Positions 22,626 through 45,483 of a stretch of DNA of 52,969 nt are shown here, piece after piece. Location: positions 1-52,969 of the IMG/VR virus record IMGVR_UViG_2718217885_000014; one strand, written 5' to 3'. How positions within the stretch are numbered: the first letter of the stretch is position 1; each line of letters begins with the position of its first letter. The position numbers and the translations under genes were made by a program. The notes under the pieces are model-generated. The model was not told the origin of the DNA. It made no database searches and saw only the letters and a program-made list of their open reading frames with translations. This stretch comes from a virus (Duplodnaviria > Heunggongvirae > Uroviricota > Caudoviricetes).

Positions 22626-26306
<3,681 letters not shown>

Positions 26307-39202: not shown

Positions 39203-40539
39203 ATAAGCGCTAACTTAAGGGTTGAACCATCTGAAGAATGCGACGCCTCGGTGCCTCGTTAAGACGATGCCTCGCGTTCTTCAATTGCGTTTTGTAGGCT
39301 GTCAGGGATACTGTCCCACGAATGGCCACCTGTAAGCTCCAGATGACCATTTTTGTTATTCTCCACAACGAGTTAGTTCTTCTTTTCGGATCCGGCACTT
39401 CTGGGGGGGAAATCCAGCGATGGCTGGATTATGTCGTCAATTAAAAATGCGGCGAGTAGATTAGCAAATATCCACGCTTTCGCGAGTTCAGGTTCCTTTG
39501 CACGCAAAGCATCCAGGTGCAGCAAACTTTTGAGCCGCTTAAAAGCCAGTTCAATTTGCCATCGCAGACGGTAACAATCAGCCACTTGCTCTGCTGAATA
39601 TTCATCTTCCGGTAATGATGTTAGCAATAGCACATGGCCCGCTGCTTCCAGCGTTTCCGCCTGAACTACTCGTCCTTTTCGACGATTCTCGCTGAGCAGT
39701 CGGGTTTTACTGATTAATGCTTTTTCGGGAGGAAGTGATACGGCAATGAGACGTGCCGGAAAGGGAGCTCCGGCTTTTTTATTACCTGAATTGCCTATCA
39801 TTACAGTGGTTTCACCGTTCTTACCGCAATCCAGCCCGCGCAGAAAACCCATCATGTCAAAGCGCATTCCTTCTGCAGTTAACCAGCGCAATCCTCGCCA
39901 GTGAACCCGGACGATATAATCAGCTTCTCCAAAAGCAAGTGAGCGGATACATTCGGGACGCGAACCGAATCCCCGGTCAGCAATGCGTATCTCGTCTGCC
40001 GTTTGCGCAAATCGGTCCAGCCGTTCAGCGTCTCTGCTGTCGGTTAGCTCAAAATCAGTGAACTGACAGGTATGAGGATCATATCCCATATGTAGTCGCC
40101 ATTCAGCGCTGCCGCCCCCGGGCGCACTGATTGCTGTTCCATCGACAAGACGCAATCTCTTTCCGCTTGTACAACCCGTAACTGCGGCGCGTACAGCAAG
40201 TGTTTGTGCGGCAAGTATGCCAAACCAGTCGGCGGCATTCCGCAGCCGCTTCAGGAGAGCCACGTCAGATAATGTTGCAACGTCATGGAGCTGAGCCCAT
40301 GCAGTGACTTCACGTAATGACATCCCCCCGGGGCCGTAAGCCAGCCCCAGACGTAGCAGAGTTGCAGCATCACGAATTTCGCGGCGGCGGGTTAGAGCCC
40401 CGGCATTACGTGCCGAAGTATCCAGTTCTTCGGGCTTACCAATATGGGCCAGAATTGCTGACCAGTTATCGTGAGAGTAATTCATCGGCACGTTAAATCA
40501 TATCAGGCGTAATACCACAACCCTTAAGTTAGCGCTTAT
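39203..40539 (-). mobile_element. IS4-family insertion sequence (about 1.34 kb)
   Basis: About 22-bp terminal inverted repeats (ATAAGCGCTAACTTAAGGGTTG at 39203-39224, CAACCCTTAAGTTAGCGCTTAT at 40518-40539); flanked by 11-bp direct repeat TCCCACACCCC (39192-39202 and 40541-40551); one transposase ORF inside. Confidence 0.85.
39373..40485 (-). CDS. IS4-family DDE transposase
   Basis: About 370 aa; C-terminal YRLRWQIELAFKRLKS signature typical of IS4-family transposases. Confidence 0.8.
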   Translation of the reverse strand: MNYSHDNWSAILAHIGKPEELDTSARNAGALTRRREIRDAATLLRLGLAYGPGGMSLREVTAWAQLHDVATLSDVALLKRLRNAADWFGILAAQTLAVRAAVTGCTSGKRLRLVDGTAISAPGGGSAEWRLHMGYDPHTCQFTDFELTDSRDAERLDRFAQTADEIRIADRGFGSRPECIRSLAFGEADYIVRVHWRGLRWLTAEGMRFDMMGFLRGLDCGKNGETTVMIGNSGNKKAGAPFPARLIAVSLPPEKALISKTRLLSENRRKGRVVQAETLEAAGHVLLLTSLPEDEYSAEQVADCYRLRWQIELAFKRLKSLLHLDALRAKEPELAKAWIFANLLAAFLIDDIIQPSLDFPPRSAGSEKKN

Positions 40540-40814
40540 GTCCCACACCCCCGCGTGGGTCAGGGCGTCAAACAGCGCCTTGTTATAGTTGTCCAGATCG
40601 CGGATCCGGTTATCCGGAGGAAACAACACGATCTCCACTGAAGCAGGTGCCGACGTTGGTTTCGGCAGACGACGTAACTGCTCAACTATTGCTGCGCACG
40701 CCGCGCTCTGGAATTTTCGCCCCGCCGCGCTTATCAGGCTCTTACCAGCAAACGCCCCTTTGTTGGGGTGTCGCCAGTACGTGTTCACGCTGGGCGGGAA
40801 AGGCAGTATTAGCT

Positions 40815-41141
40815 TCATACTTTCAGGCCCCTCTCATGTAACCAGTGGGTTGCACGCAGCCTGGCGTTTTCCTCACCGGCAAGCAGTGAGCGGATAATCC
40901 CGACCGCCTCGCTGTCGTCGTCCTTCACCGCGGTATGAAGCGTTATCCCCCGGGCCACACCACGCTTTATCGTGATGACGCCTTTTTTCTCCAGTGCGCG
41001 AAGATGCTCCACCGCTGCATTCACTGAACGGTATCCCAGCATGGTTGCCACCTCCTGATTGGTTGGCGGGAAGCCACGTTCTTTCTGGTAAGAAATCAGC
41101 ATATCCAGCACCTGCTGCTGGCATTGAGTTAACGTCGTCAT
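40815..41141 (-). CDS. LexA DNA-binding-domain-only protein (winged helix, no S24 peptidase domain)
   Basis: 108 aa from ATG at 41139-41141 (MTTLTQCQQQVLDMLISYQKERGFPPTNQEVATMLGYRSVNAAVEHLRALEKKGVITIKRGVARGITL), resembling the LexA N-terminal domain; no C-terminal protease domain. Confidence 0.6.
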   Translation of the reverse strand: MTTLTQCQQQVLDMLISYQKERGFPPTNQEVATMLGYRSVNAAVEHLRALEKKGVITIKRGVARGITLHTAVKDDDSEAVGIIRSLLAGEENARLRATHWLHERGLKV

Positions 41142-41629
41142 TAAGCCCCCACGTAATTGCCTGACAGATACCACTCTTCACCCGATGCAGCGCGCTTGCT
41201 GCTTTTCCGTAAGCACCGCTCACGACGCGCCAGAAAATTGTTTCGTTCTGGCTTGGAGTGGCTTTCACGGAATGCCGCCATCCACACCGTTGCAGCACGA
41301 CGAAATAAGCCCCTGGACTCCAGTTCTTCCGCCTGGCGGGTCAGGCACAAAATCACCCGTGGATCGTTAGTGCCGACATAGAAATTGCGCACAGGTCTGG
41401 TTTCACGAACTGGTTGTGGTTCCGGCTCCTGCGCTCTCTCAGTCAGGCGTGGGAAATGTCTGCGTGTATCTCCTTCACAACGGTGAGCCACACGCCCACT
41501 CTGACGTAACTTGCTTGCTGACTGCAGAACGCGCTGTCGTGAGTAACCAGCAAAAGCATCCGCAATGTCTCCTGAAGTACACCCCGGATGGGCTTCAATG
41601 AATTTCTGAACTTCATTCAAAAGACTCAT
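41141..41629 (-). CDS. PerC-family-like regulator with N-terminal winged-helix region
   Basis: 162 aa; central motif ELESRGLFRRAATVWMAAF resembles the PerC/Pch signature from memory; occupies the slot after the replication initiator where lambda has P. Confidence 0.5.
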   Translation of the reverse strand: MSLLNEVQKFIEAHPGCTSGDIADAFAGYSRQRVLQSASKLRQSGRVAHRCEGDTRRHFPRLTERAQEPEPQPVRETRPVRNFYVGTNDPRVILCLTRQAEELESRGLFRRAATVWMAAFRESHSKPERNNFLARRERCLRKSSKRAASGEEWYLSGNYVGA

Positions 41630-42450
41630 AATCCCCCCCTGAATCCTGCCGGGATCTGGCTGTAGTCCACGTTGTCGTAACTGGCTTTGAAGTACGGGTC
41701 CTCGCGTCTGGCTGCAGATACCGCAGGAACTTCCCAGGATTCTTCGAAATGACGATCCGGACCAAAGAACGTGACAGCCTGTTTCACAAATTGTGTGCCG
41801 CTGTTACCCATCGCAGATACCCAGCCCGCGTAGCGTTTCACACCTTCCAGCATGGTTTCGGGGTTTACCCCCTCATTCAAACGGGCTTTCCAGGCTTTGA
41901 AGGCTGCAGATTTTGAATTGCCACCAGCACGTTTGGGATAGGCCAGCCATGCCTGCTCAAACTCCGGAGAGTATTCCGGTCGGTTTGAACGAACTCGCAC
42001 AGACTCATCAGCAGATGCACCAACAGCTATTGGTTCATTGACTGGTTCTTTGACTGGTTCAAAAGAGTGACTGGTTCTGGGTGAATCTCCTGCACTACCC
42101 CCTGGTGCAACTCCTGCACTACCTGGTGAATTTGCTGCACCAGATAGTGAATTATTTGCACTACCCCCTAGTGAATCTCCTGCACCATCAAGATGAAGGA
42201 GATAGATATTACTTGAGTTACCTTTTTCACCTTTCCGGGTGACTTTTTTTACCAGCCCAGACTCACAAAGGGCCGCAATATGATTCATCACAGAACGTTT
42301 GCTAATCTCGCACTGGTCAGCAATATGCTGGTAGCTGGGCCAGCACTCCCCCTGATCGCTGGCATTATCAGCCAGCTTGATCAGAACCAGTTTTCGCAAT
42401 GGATTACCCACTCGAATTTTCATCGCTTTAACCATCAGCTCCATACTCAT
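41626..42450 (-). CDS. replication initiation protein (lambda O-like, N-terminal HTH)
   Basis: 274 aa; N-terminal HTH domain (CWPSYQHIADQCEISKRSVMNHIAALCESGLVKK); low-complexity Gly/Ser/Ala linker encoded by DNA iterons; position after cro/cII-like genes. Confidence 0.75.
   Translation of the reverse strand: MSMELMVKAMKIRVGNPLRKLVLIKLADNASDQGECWPSYQHIADQCEISKRSVMNHIAALCESGLVKKVTRKGEKGNSSNIYLLHLDGAGDSLGGSANNSLSGAANSPGSAGVAPGGSAGDSPRTSHSFEPVKEPVNEPIAVGASADESVRVRSNRPEYSPEFEQAWLAYPKRAGGNSKSAAFKAWKARLNEGVNPETMLEGVKRYAGWVSAMGNSGTQFVKQAVTFFGPDRHFEESWEVPAVSAARREDPYFKASYDNVDYSQIPAGFRGGL
42078..42186. repeat. iteron array (five degenerate about 20-bp direct repeats) inside the replication initiator gene; probable origin of replication
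   Basis: Repeats TGGGTGAATCTCCTGCACTACCCCC, TGGTGCAACTCCTGCACTACC, TGGTGAATTTGCTGCACC, AGTGAATTATTTGCACTACCCCC, TAGTGAATCTCCTGCACC; three further TGACTGGTTC repeats at 42038-42079; AT-rich tract at 42187-42230. Confidence 0.6.
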
Positions 42451-42671
42451 GCTGCACCTCCGAGATGCTTCATGTTTTTTCCGGAGCGAAAGGCTATAAG
42501 CGGCATACTGACGCGGTAATTACGGCCCAGCGGTTCACAAATCACCTTCTGACATTCACGGTCAACCAGGCTAACACGTAGAACATGCCCTGCTGGCGTG
42601 GTGTACCACTGACCGGGGAGAGGACAACGGAAAGTCTGATTGGTAAATCGTTTGAAAATATTCCGGATCAT
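42447..42671 (-). CDS. hypothetical small protein
   Basis: 74-aa ORF whose stop overlaps the start of the replication gene by 4 nt. Confidence 0.45.
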   Translation of the reverse strand: MIRNIFKRFTNQTFRCPLPGQWYTTPAGHVLRVSLVDRECQKVICEPLGRNYRVSMPLIAFRSGKNMKHLGGAA

Positions 42672-43831
42672 TTACGCCCCCTTACCTCTGAAGAGTTCAG
42701 CGACGAATGAATAAGACGGGCAAGAAATGCCGCATCGTTAATTCGGTCATACAGACTTACAGCCAGCGGTGATTCAGCTTTTTCCAGCATGGGATAAAGC
42801 TGCTGCAACCAGACCTGATGAATTGATGAAATGTAGGAATAGAGTACGCTGGCGTTATGTGCAACGTCGCTCGGTACAGCGGGCTTTGAAAGCTGTTTCT
42901 CCATCTGGTTAAAGGCATTGATGTATGCCTCCTTGAACTGGGCTGCACGTTTGCCAGTGAAGCCCATTGCCAAGAACGCGAAGCCGTCGCGGGTGATGTG
43001 GTAGCAAGGAAGTTTGCGAGTACCGCCGTTGGGCTGGTGTACCCAAATTGATGTCTCCGCAAAATTGCGGGCACAAAACTCTGGAGAACAATCCAAAATG
43101 CGGATCTTTTTCAGAACATCGTCATGACGTTTAGAGAAGAAGTCAGCAACAGCCAAAGAAGATGTAACAGCCTGACCATCAACGATGGCAATTTCAGGTT
43201 GAGAGAGGGTTGGGAGAGTAGTCATGGTGACAGCCCCGGTAGTCAGTTTTTCAGAAAACTCACCACATGGGACGCCAATCACAGAGGTGGTGAGACGTAC
43301 AGGGTTGGCGTTACCGGAGACTACCGAACCCGGCCCGACCGAAGTCGGCCCTGTACGCCCCACCATAATTTGGGCGTAGCAATGCTCATGACACGAAAAA
43401 ACCGCATGAGCGCGGTTATGCTCAGTAATCAATTTCAGGACGCCAATCCCGGCACCCGTTTTATAAGGTGCCTGAACAGTGTAACGTCCCGGAATGGCAG
43501 AATCAATGTGCTGGTGGTCCTTCACACTCAACAAAATCACGCCTGAATTTCCACAAAGGACTAAAGCACTCATGCGGGTAGTCTTTGCGAAGATAGATAA
43601 CGCGCTGTGTATCTGGTTCCCAACGAATAACATGGACATAAAGCCCTCTTCCGTCACGAAACCAGCGGTTAAGTTCCTGCACAACTCGCCCCCCACAGTC
43701 AGGTAAAGTTCTCTGTGGTTACTTACAGCCAGGTGATTTGGTAATCTGCATTCATGCCGTAACAACAGGAGTTCAGCGACGCTGACCACCAGCTGTTGCG
43801 ACAAACGGTTATTTGCCGTTAAACTGTTCAT
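42668..43831 (-). CDS. Rha-family phage regulatory protein with about 200-aa N-terminal extension (possible alternative start at 43225)
   Basis: 387-aa ORF; residues from about 203 (MTTLPTLSQPEIAIVDGQAVTSSLAVADFFSKRHDDVLKKIRILDC) resemble the Phage_pRha domain; start ATG overlaps the stop of the upstream gene, supporting the long form; ATG at 43223-43225 would give 185 aa. Confidence 0.6.
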   Translation of the reverse strand: MNSLTANNRLSQQLVVSVAELLLLRHECRLPNHLAVSNHRELYLTVGGELCRNLTAGFVTEEGFMSMLFVGNQIHSALSIFAKTTRMSALVLCGNSGVILLSVKDHQHIDSAIPGRYTVQAPYKTGAGIGVLKLITEHNRAHAVFSCHEHCYAQIMVGRTGPTSVGPGSVVSGNANPVRLTTSVIGVPCGEFSEKLTTGAVTMTTLPTLSQPEIAIVDGQAVTSSLAVADFFSKRHDDVLKKIRILDCSPEFCARNFAETSIWVHQPNGGTRKLPCYHITRDGFAFLAMGFTGKRAAQFKEAYINAFNQMEKQLSKPAVPSDVAHNASVLYSYISSIHQVWLQQLYPMLEKAESPLAVSLYDRINDAAFLARLIHSSLNSSEVRGRK

Positions 43832-44379
43832 GCGTTAGTTTCTCCACAGACACAAAACGCCACGACGCCCGGAGCTGCACACTCGCGGGCGTCACTCTTT
43901 TCTGGAGCGCAAAAGATTTTGTAGACCAGTGCTGCATGCTCCTGGAGCTTCGAAATTGACAGATACAACTCATCATTAATTGCTGTCTGCTCGTGTGGCT
44001 CCACTACCCCATCTTCGATTGCCGAACGAATCTGCTTTGAGTAACTCCCGATCTGTTCGATGACTTCCAGCAGGCGCTGGTTTATATCGGCGTTCTCTAC
44101 TTCCTCAATTTCAGGAAGCGATACGAACACCCCACCAGCAGACTGTGCGACAGCATCCGCAATGTAGTGAGTGCCAGCTGCGCGCTGTAAAACCATTGCC
44201 CATCCCAGCGGGAAAATCTGATCGCCATCGGCACGAAGGCGGTTAAATAATGCGTTCTCTGTTACATCCAGCCAGTCAGCAGCTTCAGCGTAACCACCCG
44301 GCAACGCCGCGATAGTTTTTCTGACAGCTTTCACGTACCACTCAGGCTGTTTTTCTACTTTCCAGTGATGCTTACCCAC
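43828..44379 (-). CDS. hypothetical early protein in the cII position (YdaT-like, tentative)
   Basis: Proposed GTG start at 44377-44379 with GAGGAG Shine-Dalgarno 6 nt upstream; track ORF extends to 44490 overlapping cro; family assignment is a guess from position. Confidence 0.5.
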   Translation of the reverse strand: MGKHHWKVEKQPEWYVKAVRKTIAALPGGYAEAADWLDVTENALFNRLRADGDQIFPLGWAMVLQRAAGTHYIADAVAQSAGGVFVSLPEIEEVENADINQRLLEVIEQIGSYSKQIRSAIEDGVVEPHEQTAINDELYLSISKLQEHAALVYKIFCAPEKSDARECAAPGVVAFCVCGETNA

Positions 44380-44407
44380 GGTTAACTCCTCGTTTCTGTG
44401 GTTACGT

Positions 44408-44671
44408 TTACGCAACTGAACCGCTAACTTTTGAATAGCACTCTGGTAATCCATCATTTGGATTTGGATAAATATCAGGACGCAGCTCATGGGGGGTTAC
44501 GGACCAGTTCCCCAGCTCACAAAGTTGTAAAACTCGTTCCGACGGGACTTGATTGTTAATTACCCAATTAGCGACAGATTGAGTAGATTTAAAACCAAAG
44601 CGACGAGCTACTTCAGATAAAGACTTTCCCGCAGCCTTTACTGCTTTCTCGGTGTAGTTTTGAGATGACAT
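44408..44671 (-). CDS. cro: Cro-like HTH repressor
   Basis: 87 aa; HTH (LSEVARRFGFKSTQSVANWV); GAGGAG Shine-Dalgarno; divergent from cI across an operator/promoter region. Confidence 0.8.
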   Translation of the reverse strand: MSSQNYTEKAVKAAGKSLSEVARRFGFKSTQSVANWVINNQVPSERVLQLCELGNWSVTPHELRPDIYPNPNDGLPECYSKVSGSVA

Positions 44672-44698
44672 ATCTTTCTCCTCTGAAATCCAGAGGGG

Positions 44699-44741
44699 AT
44701 AATGCTACTTAAAGTAGCGAATTGCAACTACTTAAAATAGA
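44699..44741. promoter_or_regulatory. OR operator/promoter region (PR for cro, putative PRM for cI)
   Basis: Pseudo-palindrome GCTACTTAAAGTAGC (44704-44718) and related CTACTTAAAATAG (44728-44740); minus-strand PR: -35 TTGCAA (44722-44727), 17-nt spacer, -10 CATTAT (44699-44704); plus-strand TAAAAT (44733-44738) 5 nt before the cI ATG suggests a leaderless cI transcript. Confidence 0.6.
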
Positions 44742-44742
44742 A

Positions 44743-45483
44743 ATGACGAGCGTATGTGATGTGAGTAATCTTCTACCTATGGTAGAAGAACAGAAGTATC
44801 CAGATTTCGCCAAGAGACTAAACGAGTTAATGACAAACAAGGGAATTTCTGTCACCCAACTCAAAAGTCTTGTTGGCGTTACATATGAAATGGCGCGGCG
44901 ATACACAATCGGCGCAGCGAAGCCTCGTGCCTCTGTCATGAATAAACTTGCGTTGGCTCTGGGGGTATCGGCTTCATATTTAGAATATGGTGTTGGCGAG
45001 AGAGAAGGATGTAAGGAAATGGCAAGCATCCCCAATCCAACAAAACCCGACGTATACAGGATAGAAGTTTTAGATCTTAGCGTTAGCGCAGGACCTGGAA
45101 CCTATATGCTTTCAGACTATGTTGATGTGCTCTACGCCATTGAGTTCACAACAGAACATGCCCGTTCTCTTTTCGGTAACCGTTCTCAGGATGATATTAA
45201 GGTTATGACTGTAAATGGCGATAGTATGTCCCCTACTCTCGTTTCCGGAGATCGACTGTTTGTCGACATTTCTGTTCGTCACTTCCAGACTGATGGAATT
45301 TACTCTTTCGTTTACGGTAAGACTTTTCATGTTAAACGTCTTCAAATGCAAGGTGACAAGCTAGCCGTTCTTTCGGATAACCCTGCCTATGAGAAATGGT
45401 ACATCGATGAAAAATCGCAGGATCAGCTTTATGTAATGGGCAAGGCGTTGATTCATGAGTCAATAAAATACAATCGGTTATAG
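44743..45483 (+). CDS. cI: CI-type prophage repressor (XRE HTH plus S24 LexA-like autopeptidase domain)
   Basis: HTH (FAKRLNELMTNKGISVTQLKSLVGVTYEMARRY); S24 motifs VNGDSMSPTL (Ser) and FHVKRL (Lys); start uncertain (ATG 44743 chosen; in-frame ATG 44779 and track TTG 44722 are alternatives). Confidence 0.85.
   Translation: MTSVCDVSNLLPMVEEQKYPDFAKRLNELMTNKGISVTQLKSLVGVTYEMARRYTIGAAKPRASVMNKLALALGVSASYLEYGVGEREGCKEMASIPNPTKPDVYRIEVLDLSVSAGPGTYMLSDYVDVLYAIEFTTEHARSLFGNRSQDDIKVMTVNGDSMSPTLVSGDRLFVDISVRHFQTDGIYSFVYGKTFHVKRLQMQGDKLAVLSDNPAYEKWYIDEKSQDQLYVMGKALIHESIKYNRL
44771..44787. promoter_or_regulatory. 17-bp palindrome TTCTACC-TAT-GGTAGAA of unknown function
   Basis: Perfect 7-bp inverted arms with 3-bp spacer; differs from the OR/OL operator sequence; lies within or at the 5' end of cI depending on start choice. 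Confidence 0.35.

Follow-up and report, generated by a model that had tools for sequence, protein, structure and literature searches.

Does an array of short repeats inside a predicted replication-initiator gene serve the protein or the DNA? The question is raised by a lambdoid prophage in IMG/VR record IMGVR_UViG_2718217885_000014, of which 52,969 bases were analysed (hereafter the window) and in which the repeats lie within a 274-codon gene on the minus strand. A preliminary description had proposed that they form an iteron-type origin arranged like that of phage lambda, whose ori, according to its record, consists of four palindromic 18-bp iterons (spacing 20, 24 and 23 bp) within codons 117-145 of O and of an A+T-rich tract after them (78% over 41 nt). 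Judging from sequence comparisons, we think it likely that the locus is a replication-origin module embedded in the gene of its own initiator, with a neighbouring block that is conserved as DNA rather than as protein.

The initiator gene carries five palindromic iterons

The predicted protein matches PHROG 270 ('replication initiation protein') over almost its whole length (aa 3-271, 1e-88), and separate PHROGs match its N-terminal (aa 1-149) and C-terminal (aa 135-272) halves, suggesting a modular protein. HTH_36 is the only Pfam family found (aa 17-67, 1.8e-11, above the gathering score); the match to DnaD_N was weak, and Phage_rep_O, the family of lambda O, was not matched. In the AlphaFold2 model the predicted local distance difference test score (pLDDT) is 80-94 for residues 1-88 and 30-40 for residues 91-157, with a moderately confident helical domain from about residue 160. 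Foldseek searches with this model returned generic winged-helix proteins, including DnaD-N 2v79, for the N-terminal winged helix only; the C-terminal domain gave no Pfam match even at E = 10, no PDB sequence match and no Foldseek match. The features of the locus are as follows.

41626-42450, minus strand: initiator gene, 274 aa (open reading frame list)
aa 1-88, winged helix; aa 89-157, disordered linker; aa about 160-272, helical C-terminal domain: initiator domains (AlphaFold2, Pfam)
42187-42450, minus strand: coding region of the winged-helix DNA-binding domain (Pfam, AlphaFold2), with recognition helix SKRSVMNHI at aa 50-58
42187-42230, no strand: A+T-rich tract, 70% A+T over 40 nt (42187-42226), abutting iteron 1 and encoding the wing KGEKGNSSNIYLLHL (composition)
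42169-42187, minus strand: iteron 1, first in gene order, tGGTGCAGGAGATTCACTA (pattern match)
42145-42163, minus strand: iteron 2, TAGTGCAAATAATTCACTA (pattern match)
42124-42142, minus strand: iteron 3, TGGTGCAGCAAATTCACCA (pattern match)
42103-42121, minus strand: iteron 4, TAGTGCAGGAGTTGCACCA, whose arms GTGCA/TGCAC form a perfect dyad (pattern match)
42079-42097, minus strand: iteron 5, last in gene order, TAGTGCAGGAGATTCACCC, running straight into the conserved block (pattern match)
42044-42080, minus strand: family-invariant 37-bp block CCAGAACCAGTCACTCTTTTGAACCAGTCAAAGAACC, two direct GAACCAGTCA units and the start of a third (codon and substitution comparison)
42031-42043, minus strand: continuation of the block in this phage, completing the third GAACCAGTCA unit and adding a partial fourth, GAACCA (repeat search)

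With Tandem Repeats Finder the repeats emerge as an array of period 24 at 42081-42185 (4.6 copies, 64% matches, score 77). The pattern GTGMANNNNNTKCAC (GTGMA-N5-TKCAC) has five exact matches in the window, at 42081, 42105, 42126, 42147 and 42171, compared with 0.36 expected from shuffling, and none of 100 shuffles reached five. When one mismatch to AGTGCA-N5-TTCAC was allowed, no further site appeared elsewhere in the window. The five degenerate repeats of about 20 bp that had been reported inside an O-like gene are therefore borne out. On the gene strand each of them is an imperfect 19-bp palindrome, TRGTGCA-N5-TKCACYA, a feature that the preliminary description lacked, and the array folds as a single strand better than its shuffles (z = -2 to -3), as expected of palindromes. 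The iterons, 15-19 bp long, are spaced 24, 21, 21 and 24 bp apart, each a multiple of 3, and encode residues 88-124 (DGAGDSLGGSANNSLSGAANSPGSAGVAPGGSAGDSP) directly after the winged-helix domain. This segment is rich in Gly, Ser and Ala, as had been stated, and the pLDDT of 30-40 marks it as a linker; the low-scoring segment coincides exactly with the part of the protein encoded by the iterons and the GAACCAGTCA block.

Repeats vary in step with the recognition helix

Relatives retrieved from phage genomes by tblastn share the N-terminal half only, the C-terminal half only, or both, and nine of these were read (Min27, S137, ZF40, klb_E, AsXd-1, Vibrio D67 and D68, and others). Each homologue has 3-5 palindromic units of its own immediately after the N-domain, including the following.

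Min27: GGGCA-N5-TGCCC
S137, ZF40 and klb_E: YRTGCC-N7-GRCAC
Vibrio D67: GTGAC-N5-GTCAC

The units are equally palindromic and the peptides encoded by them are unrelated (GAGDS, PVPPKST, PSDKMS); the repetition is therefore a property of the DNA and not of the protein. Palindromic repeats at this position are a feature of N-domain relatives from many genera. We then compared helices with repeats in a pool of 80 bacterial loci retrieved with the N-domain together with viral contigs, giving about 150 distinct combinations of helix and array. In all of them the repeat class can be predicted from that of the recognition helix:

helix S[KR]RSVxNH: repeat GTGMA-N5-TKCAC
helix SKRSVMRHI, a single change: repeat GTGAC-N5-GTCAC (3 of 3)
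helix GRSTVKxH: repeat GGGCA-N5-TGCCC
helix CSKSAVxxH, with a wing 3 aa longer: repeat YRTGCC-N7-GRCAY, arms 7 rather than 5 bp apart

In Vibrio D67, as read directly, the helix TAMRHI is likewise paired with GTGAC-N5-GTCAC. Among phages with identical N-domains the number of iterons is 5 in 77 loci, 6 in two, 7 in one, and 8 in cdtI; viral contigs retrieved by protein were near-identical copies only and were used for these counts alone. The lengths of the initiator proteins in the database, from 242 to 302 aa, vary accordingly with iteron number. Such matching of helix to repeat, together with a changing copy number, is what would be expected of iterons matched to an initiator.

A related arrangement is seen in Vibrio phage D96a (about 1740-1900 of its locus, L010), whose N-domain is different and distantly related, and whose C-terminus is as in D67. 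Here five GTGAC-N5-GTCAC palindromes are followed by two TCCTAACA direct repeats 12 nt apart, with no GAACCAGTCA block, which suggests that iterons plus short direct repeats may be a more general layout.

The N-domain module occurs in combination with six or more unrelated C-terminal domains. One class of these is a homologue of the P-binding C-terminus of lambda O (lambda residues 143-270; 34% identity, E 3e-23), and the genes that follow the initiator in relatives encode a DnaC-like ATPase and a DnaB-like helicase (AsXd-1), a DnaB-like protein (ZF40) or a Toprim primase (Min27, S137). The lambda-O-type C-terminus and these helicase, loader and primase neighbours indicate that the module occupies the place of the origin-recognition half of lambda O. 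One viral contig, IMGVR_UViG_2228664000_000056 (L015), carries a chimera of this N-domain, its iterons and the block with a lambda-O-type C-terminus; in the translation of the next gene a GKPGTGKNH P-loop motif can be seen by eye. In several database proteins (P0047-P0050, P0076, P0027 and P0040) the first 70-80% of the initiator is fused to other domains, among them RusA and PerC, probably through deletions or frameshifts by which the C-terminal domain was lost and the N-domain and origin were kept.

A block adjoining the iterons is conserved at the DNA level

The preliminary description had placed three TGACTGGTTC repeats beside the array, and exact copies are found there, at 42039, 42051 and 42068 (42039-42077), the only three in the window. 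On the gene strand they read GAACCAGTCA, with a partial fourth copy, GAACCA, at 42031-42036. They belong to the 37-bp block (consensus CCAGAACCAGTCACTCTTTTGAACCAGTCAAWGAACC), which encodes RTSHSFEPVKEP within the disordered linker; the third GAACCAGTCA unit is found in only part of the family. In the nine phage homologues the last iteron leads directly into a nearly identical CCAGAACCAGTCACTCTTTTGAACCAGTCAAWGAACC, and this abutment of iteron and block holds in every relative.

The constraint on the block was assessed in two sets retrieved by protein. The first consists of eight divergent homologues detected by protein similarity. Where these share a residue, they also share its codon in 96% of comparisons in the block (251 of 261, 12 codons) and in only 40% in the N-domain (577 of 1430). 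The second set comprises 80 loci from bacterial genomes of GTDB, one genome per species, retrieved with the N-domain protein alone and hence a diverse sample chosen independently of the DNA. The block is present with at most 8 mismatches in 36 positions in 73 of these loci and in a version shortened by 3 nt in five more, and it is divergent in two. The 73 loci come from about 70 gammaproteobacterial species, whose genera include Pseudomonas, Shewanella, Aeromonas, Marinomonas, Xenorhabdus, Erwinia and Marinobacter. Across them, differences from the consensus amount to 7 synonymous and 159 nonsynonymous in the 11 core codons of the block, compared with 648 synonymous and 111 nonsynonymous in 36 conserved N-domain codons. 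Replacements such as T to I, H to N, F to S or L, and P to S are tolerated, and the third-codon positions are frozen. As the peptide is also predicted to be disordered, the constraint acts on the nucleic acid, and no other DNA of the module is as strongly conserved as the block.

A scan with the block pattern retrieved more than 120 viral contigs, and all 111 with a complete 5' part carry this N-domain family upstream; conservation at the scanned positions is circular in this set, so that we rely on the protein-retrieved sets instead. The A+T content of the block is 56%, and in G+C-rich hosts no other spot is so constantly enriched in A+T relative to its surroundings (0.56, compared with 0.42 in the background). 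In Pseudomonas bharatica (L225) and Erwinia tracheiphila (L262) the block is out of frame with the N-domain, and in Ca. Phlomobacter (L263) codon 8 is an in-frame stop. All three are probably prophage genes in decay, in which the DNA of the block is nevertheless intact.

Three other properties of the block were considered and set aside. A programmed frameshift at TCTTTTGAA was rejected, as no slippery heptamer lies in frame and the TTT varies in 40 of 73 loci. A promoter inside the block was rejected as well, the sigma-70 scan being empty and the TTGACT and TTGAAC hexamers lacking a -10 partner by eye. Concerted change of the two GAACCAGTCA copies, which would mean a co-evolving ligand, was suggested by a single locus (L272), but the association was not significant over the 73 loci (Fisher p = 0.08).

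The A+T-rich tract lies across the array from the block

An A+T-rich tract beside the array had also been described, and it is real but modest. The 40-nt segment from 42187 has a G+C content of 0.30, a value not exceeded by only 3.9% of all 40-nt segments. No other stretch of the initiator gene is less stable: the nearest-neighbour free energy is about -34, compared with a window mean of -43 (standard deviation 3.9). The tract codes for the wing of the DNA-binding domain, which is rich in Lys, Asn, Ser and Tyr. Over the 73 related loci the mean A+T content of the tract is 0.58, about 0.10 above the 0.48 of the locus, and it is 0.51 in G+C-rich hosts. In the direction of the gene the tract lies upstream (promoter-proximal) of the repeats, and it is the block that lies downstream, in the position of lambda's A+T tract. 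Near iteron 1, within this wing-coding tract, there is also a terminator-like hairpin, TCACCTTTCCGGGTGA followed by CTTTTTTT (42227-42251, plus strand), antisense to the initiator; it could be due to chance, as 6 such sites are found in 3.6 kb and 3.6 are expected.

A working model and its alternatives

Several lines of evidence fit an iteron-type origin inside the initiator gene, as had been proposed: the position of the gene, the PHROG 270 match, the repeats of relatives, their tracking of the recognition helix, and the lambda-O-type C-terminus. We infer from this anatomy that the initiator would bind the iterons and fire the origin in the following way. Dimers of the N-terminal winged helix would bind the five palindromic iterons, whose spacing of 21-24 bp is about two helical turns, and the resulting nucleoprotein array would distort the DNA and open one flank. 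The favoured flank is the invariant block of 37-50 bp, which contains two to three direct GAACCAGTCA units and adjoins the last iteron at the position of lambda's unwinding tract; alternatively, the 70% A+T tract on the other side would open. The C-terminal domain would then bring in the replicative helicase, presumably the DnaB-DnaC of the host, since no helicase or loader gene follows. Because transcription of the operon reads through the element, and because the DNA here codes for a disordered linker, it would be free to evolve as a cis-acting site.

A number of observations weigh against this model. Immediately downstream of the last iteron, where lambda has 78% A+T, lies not a strongly A+T-rich tract but the 56% A+T block, and the truly A+T-rich tract is on the side opposite to lambda's; this leaves the site of opening uncertain, and it could be at either flank. 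No helicase or loader gene was found by Pfam after the initiator in this phage, so that helicase recruitment is assumed. The block has no more single-strand structure than its shuffles (z about 0.3-0.4). No DnaA box lies near the element (the two matches to TTWTNCACA in the window, at 22765 and 32323, are both distant, with 4.8 expected), and no IHF consensus was found near it; neither structure nor consensus thus points to a ligand of the block. The model of unwinding at the block is further weakened, or at least not supported, by the absence of promoter-like sites near it in a sigma-70 scan of 41400-45000 and by the lack of significant concerted change between the two GAACCAGTCA copies (p = 0.08, 73 loci). 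An insertion sequence may have entered rusA about 1.1 kb downstream of the initiator, and the prophage may thus be partly decayed even if its origin is intact. Finally, no experiment on any member of this N-domain family was found in the searchable literature.

We put forward tentatively, as a possibility and less firmly than the origin itself, that the block is a sequence-specific unwinding and helicase-loading element common to a large family of gammaproteobacterial phage origins. Two to three direct units adjoin the last iteron and are under constraint as DNA, and the A+T content is only 56%. In iteron plasmids the unwinding element contains repeated 13-mers that are critical in sequence and position, and after melting one of its strands is bound by Rep (PMC4980987). 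The ligand of the block would be either the conserved, non-specificity part of the N-domain, bound to a single strand after melting, or a universal host factor. An unwinding element would explain why third-codon positions are frozen beside six unrelated helicase-recruiting domains. If this is true, a fast-evolving, lineage-specific iteron lock is paired with a fixed opening site that is not strongly A+T-rich.

The alternative that survives best accepts the iterons as an origin and denies the block a role in unwinding or loading, taking it as a recombination joint between N- and C-terminal modules or as a site that acts at the RNA level or binds a host factor. The block does lie exactly at the boundary where homology breaks off, with six unrelated C-terminal classes downstream, its A+T content is only 56%, and the least stable DNA of the gene is the 70% A+T tract across the array. 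Yet selection for exchangeability alone is unlikely to freeze third-codon positions over about 70 species in which the flanks are saturated with change. A role in RNA or in binding a host factor is in turn opposed by the same lack of significant structure, of a promoter-like site in 41400-45000 and of DnaA and IHF consensus nearby, and direct repeats whose sequence is critical are well established in unwinding elements that adjoin iterons (PMC4980987). On this evidence we regard the alternative as rather unlikely.

It is improbable that the winged-helix protein is a transcription regulator acting on operators within its own gene, by autoregulation or as a roadblock, with the origin elsewhere. 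Palindromes bound by dimers are typical of operators, iterons are often autoregulatory too, and the NCBI name of the protein is merely 'helix-turn-helix domain-containing protein'. The sole cluster of sites in 53 kb is, however, inside the gene, at the position of lambda's ori, and none lies near a promoter. The same N-domain and repeat module is moreover fused to a lambda-O-type C-terminus, helicase, loader or primase genes come next in relatives, and the whole-length PHROG families are replication initiators.

It is very improbable that the array is only a coding repeat, in which slippage expanded the Gly/Ser/Ala-rich linker and the DNA has no cis-acting function: it is in frame with all spacings multiples of 3, variable in copy number, and encodes a low-complexity segment predicted to be disordered, but coding does not require its units to be palindromes, equally palindromic units encode quite different peptides in relatives, the class of the repeats goes with that of the recognition helix in the DNA-binding domain next to them, and in the adjoining block synonymous sites are frozen while nonsynonymous changes are tolerated (7 vs 159).

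Operon and prophage context

In this lambdoid early-right operon the initiator gene lies in the place of O, after genes resembling cI, cro and CII. Read leftward on the plus-strand coordinates, the order is a small cro-position open reading frame (ORF), a Phage_CP76 CII-like gene, a Rha/Ash regulator, a 74-aa ORF and the initiator, which is followed by PerC-like, LexA-like and RusA genes. The cI-like repressor faces the other way:

44722-45483, plus strand, opposite to the operon: cI-like repressor (ORF list, Pfam/PHROG)

The stop codon of the 74-aa ORF (42447-42671, minus strand) overlaps the start codon of the initiator (ATGA). Its product falls in PHROG 1153 (2e-44), whose function is unknown, and in no Pfam family; cdtI, sal3 and ZF40 have an unnamed 225-nt ORF, equal in size, immediately before the initiator. 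This ORF may be part of the replication module. Between the CII-like and replication genes, a 387-aa ORF (42668-43831, minus strand) combines Ash-family (PF10554) and Rha (PF09669) domains, and in the annotation of sal3 the equivalent region is split between two antirepressor genes.

Beyond the other end of the initiator, within 39373-40818 (minus strand), a DDE transposase gene (372 aa, PF01609) adjoins a shortened rusA. RusA here has 106 aa, its match stops at position 99 of a 124-position profile, and the tail is unrelated.

Significance

The initiator gene is at least 98% identical (98-99% in nucleotides) to the 'replication protein' genes of SfV (orf39), cdtI (orf46), mEp460 and Ayreon, and to those of Shiga toxin (Stx) phages of the Stx2c and, in part, Stx2a types, with the repeats and block included in the match. 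A 351-bp region of it was found in 925 of 5,426 complete E. coli genomes. The module is thus common, yet the NCBI pipeline names its gene just 'helix-turn-helix domain-containing protein'. The initiator type is that of Stx2c and some Stx2a phages; in the work of Ogura et al., who grouped Stx2 phages according to replication protein, toxin yield was correlated with the group (PMC4645166). With the replication start site and the specificity residues known, this link between replication type and toxin yield would become testable.

The match of helix to iteron, in which the N of SVMNHI goes with GTGCA and the R of SVMRHI with GTGAC, offers a compact system for the evolution of origin specificity. 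The frozen 37-bp block can serve as a DNA marker for annotating this type of origin in phage and prophage genomes. The main value of the findings lies in annotation and in a handle on the replication types of Stx phages; the block is the one part that might repay experiment.

Comparison with known origins

The closest systems are those of SfV orf39, cdtI orf46, mEp460 and the Stx2c 'replication protein' (PHROG 270). These are the same gene and show no substantial difference, except that cdtI has eight repeats and this phage five. No description of the origin or block of such phages was found in the searchable literature, and older reviews may list one.

Iteron plasmids (RK2 oriV, F, R6K) also combine a winged-helix initiator with clustered iterons, and their adjacent 13-mer unwinding element resembles the arrangement of GAACCAGTCA units next to the array here. 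In plasmids the iterons are direct repeats without symmetry, to which a monomer with two winged-helix domains binds, whereas the sites here are palindromic and the protein has one such domain. Plasmid origins are intergenic and usually have DnaA boxes, whereas the candidate here is inside a gene with no DnaA box nearby.

Gene 18 of P22 and of phage L are, like the gene studied here, non-lambda lambdoid initiators with repeats of their own in the coding region, which their authors interpreted as origins on the same comparative grounds (PMC8022706). They differ in the sequence of the repeats (in L, six 11-bp TGTCCAACGGA units) and in having, together with the initiator, a DnaB-type helicase gene that this phage lacks. 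In the published view, lambda O and the gp18 proteins of P22 and L bind iterons of their own that lie within the respective coding regions (PMC8022706), so the general design is already known.

The comparison with lambda ori and O, which extends to the lambdoid phages 82, phi80, 933W and P27, shows both the shared plan and the departures from it. In both systems palindromic iterons of 18-19 bp lie about two helical turns apart, directly after the DNA-binding domain of the initiator in a linker-coding segment (lambda aa 117-158; here aa 88-140), their number varies (4 in lambda and 6 in Stx phages, PMC7466680; 5 to 8 here), and the initiator is modular, with an N-terminus for the origin and a C-terminus for the helicase partner. 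The N-domain here is of the HTH_36 and not the Phage_rep_O family, and no P-like loader gene follows the initiator. Comparison with lambda ori shows the same layout and an unrelated iteron sequence. The likeness to lambda in the preliminary description holds for iterons inside the initiator gene after the DNA-binding domain and fails for the A+T-rich tract, which is on the opposite side. From sequence, two departures from the lambda plan are apparent: the A+T-rich tract is promoter-proximal, in the part coding for the DNA-binding domain, and the flank equivalent to lambda's 78% A+T tract is taken by a 56% A+T block of direct repeats, fixed in sequence and conserved as DNA across a large family of gammaproteobacterial phages.

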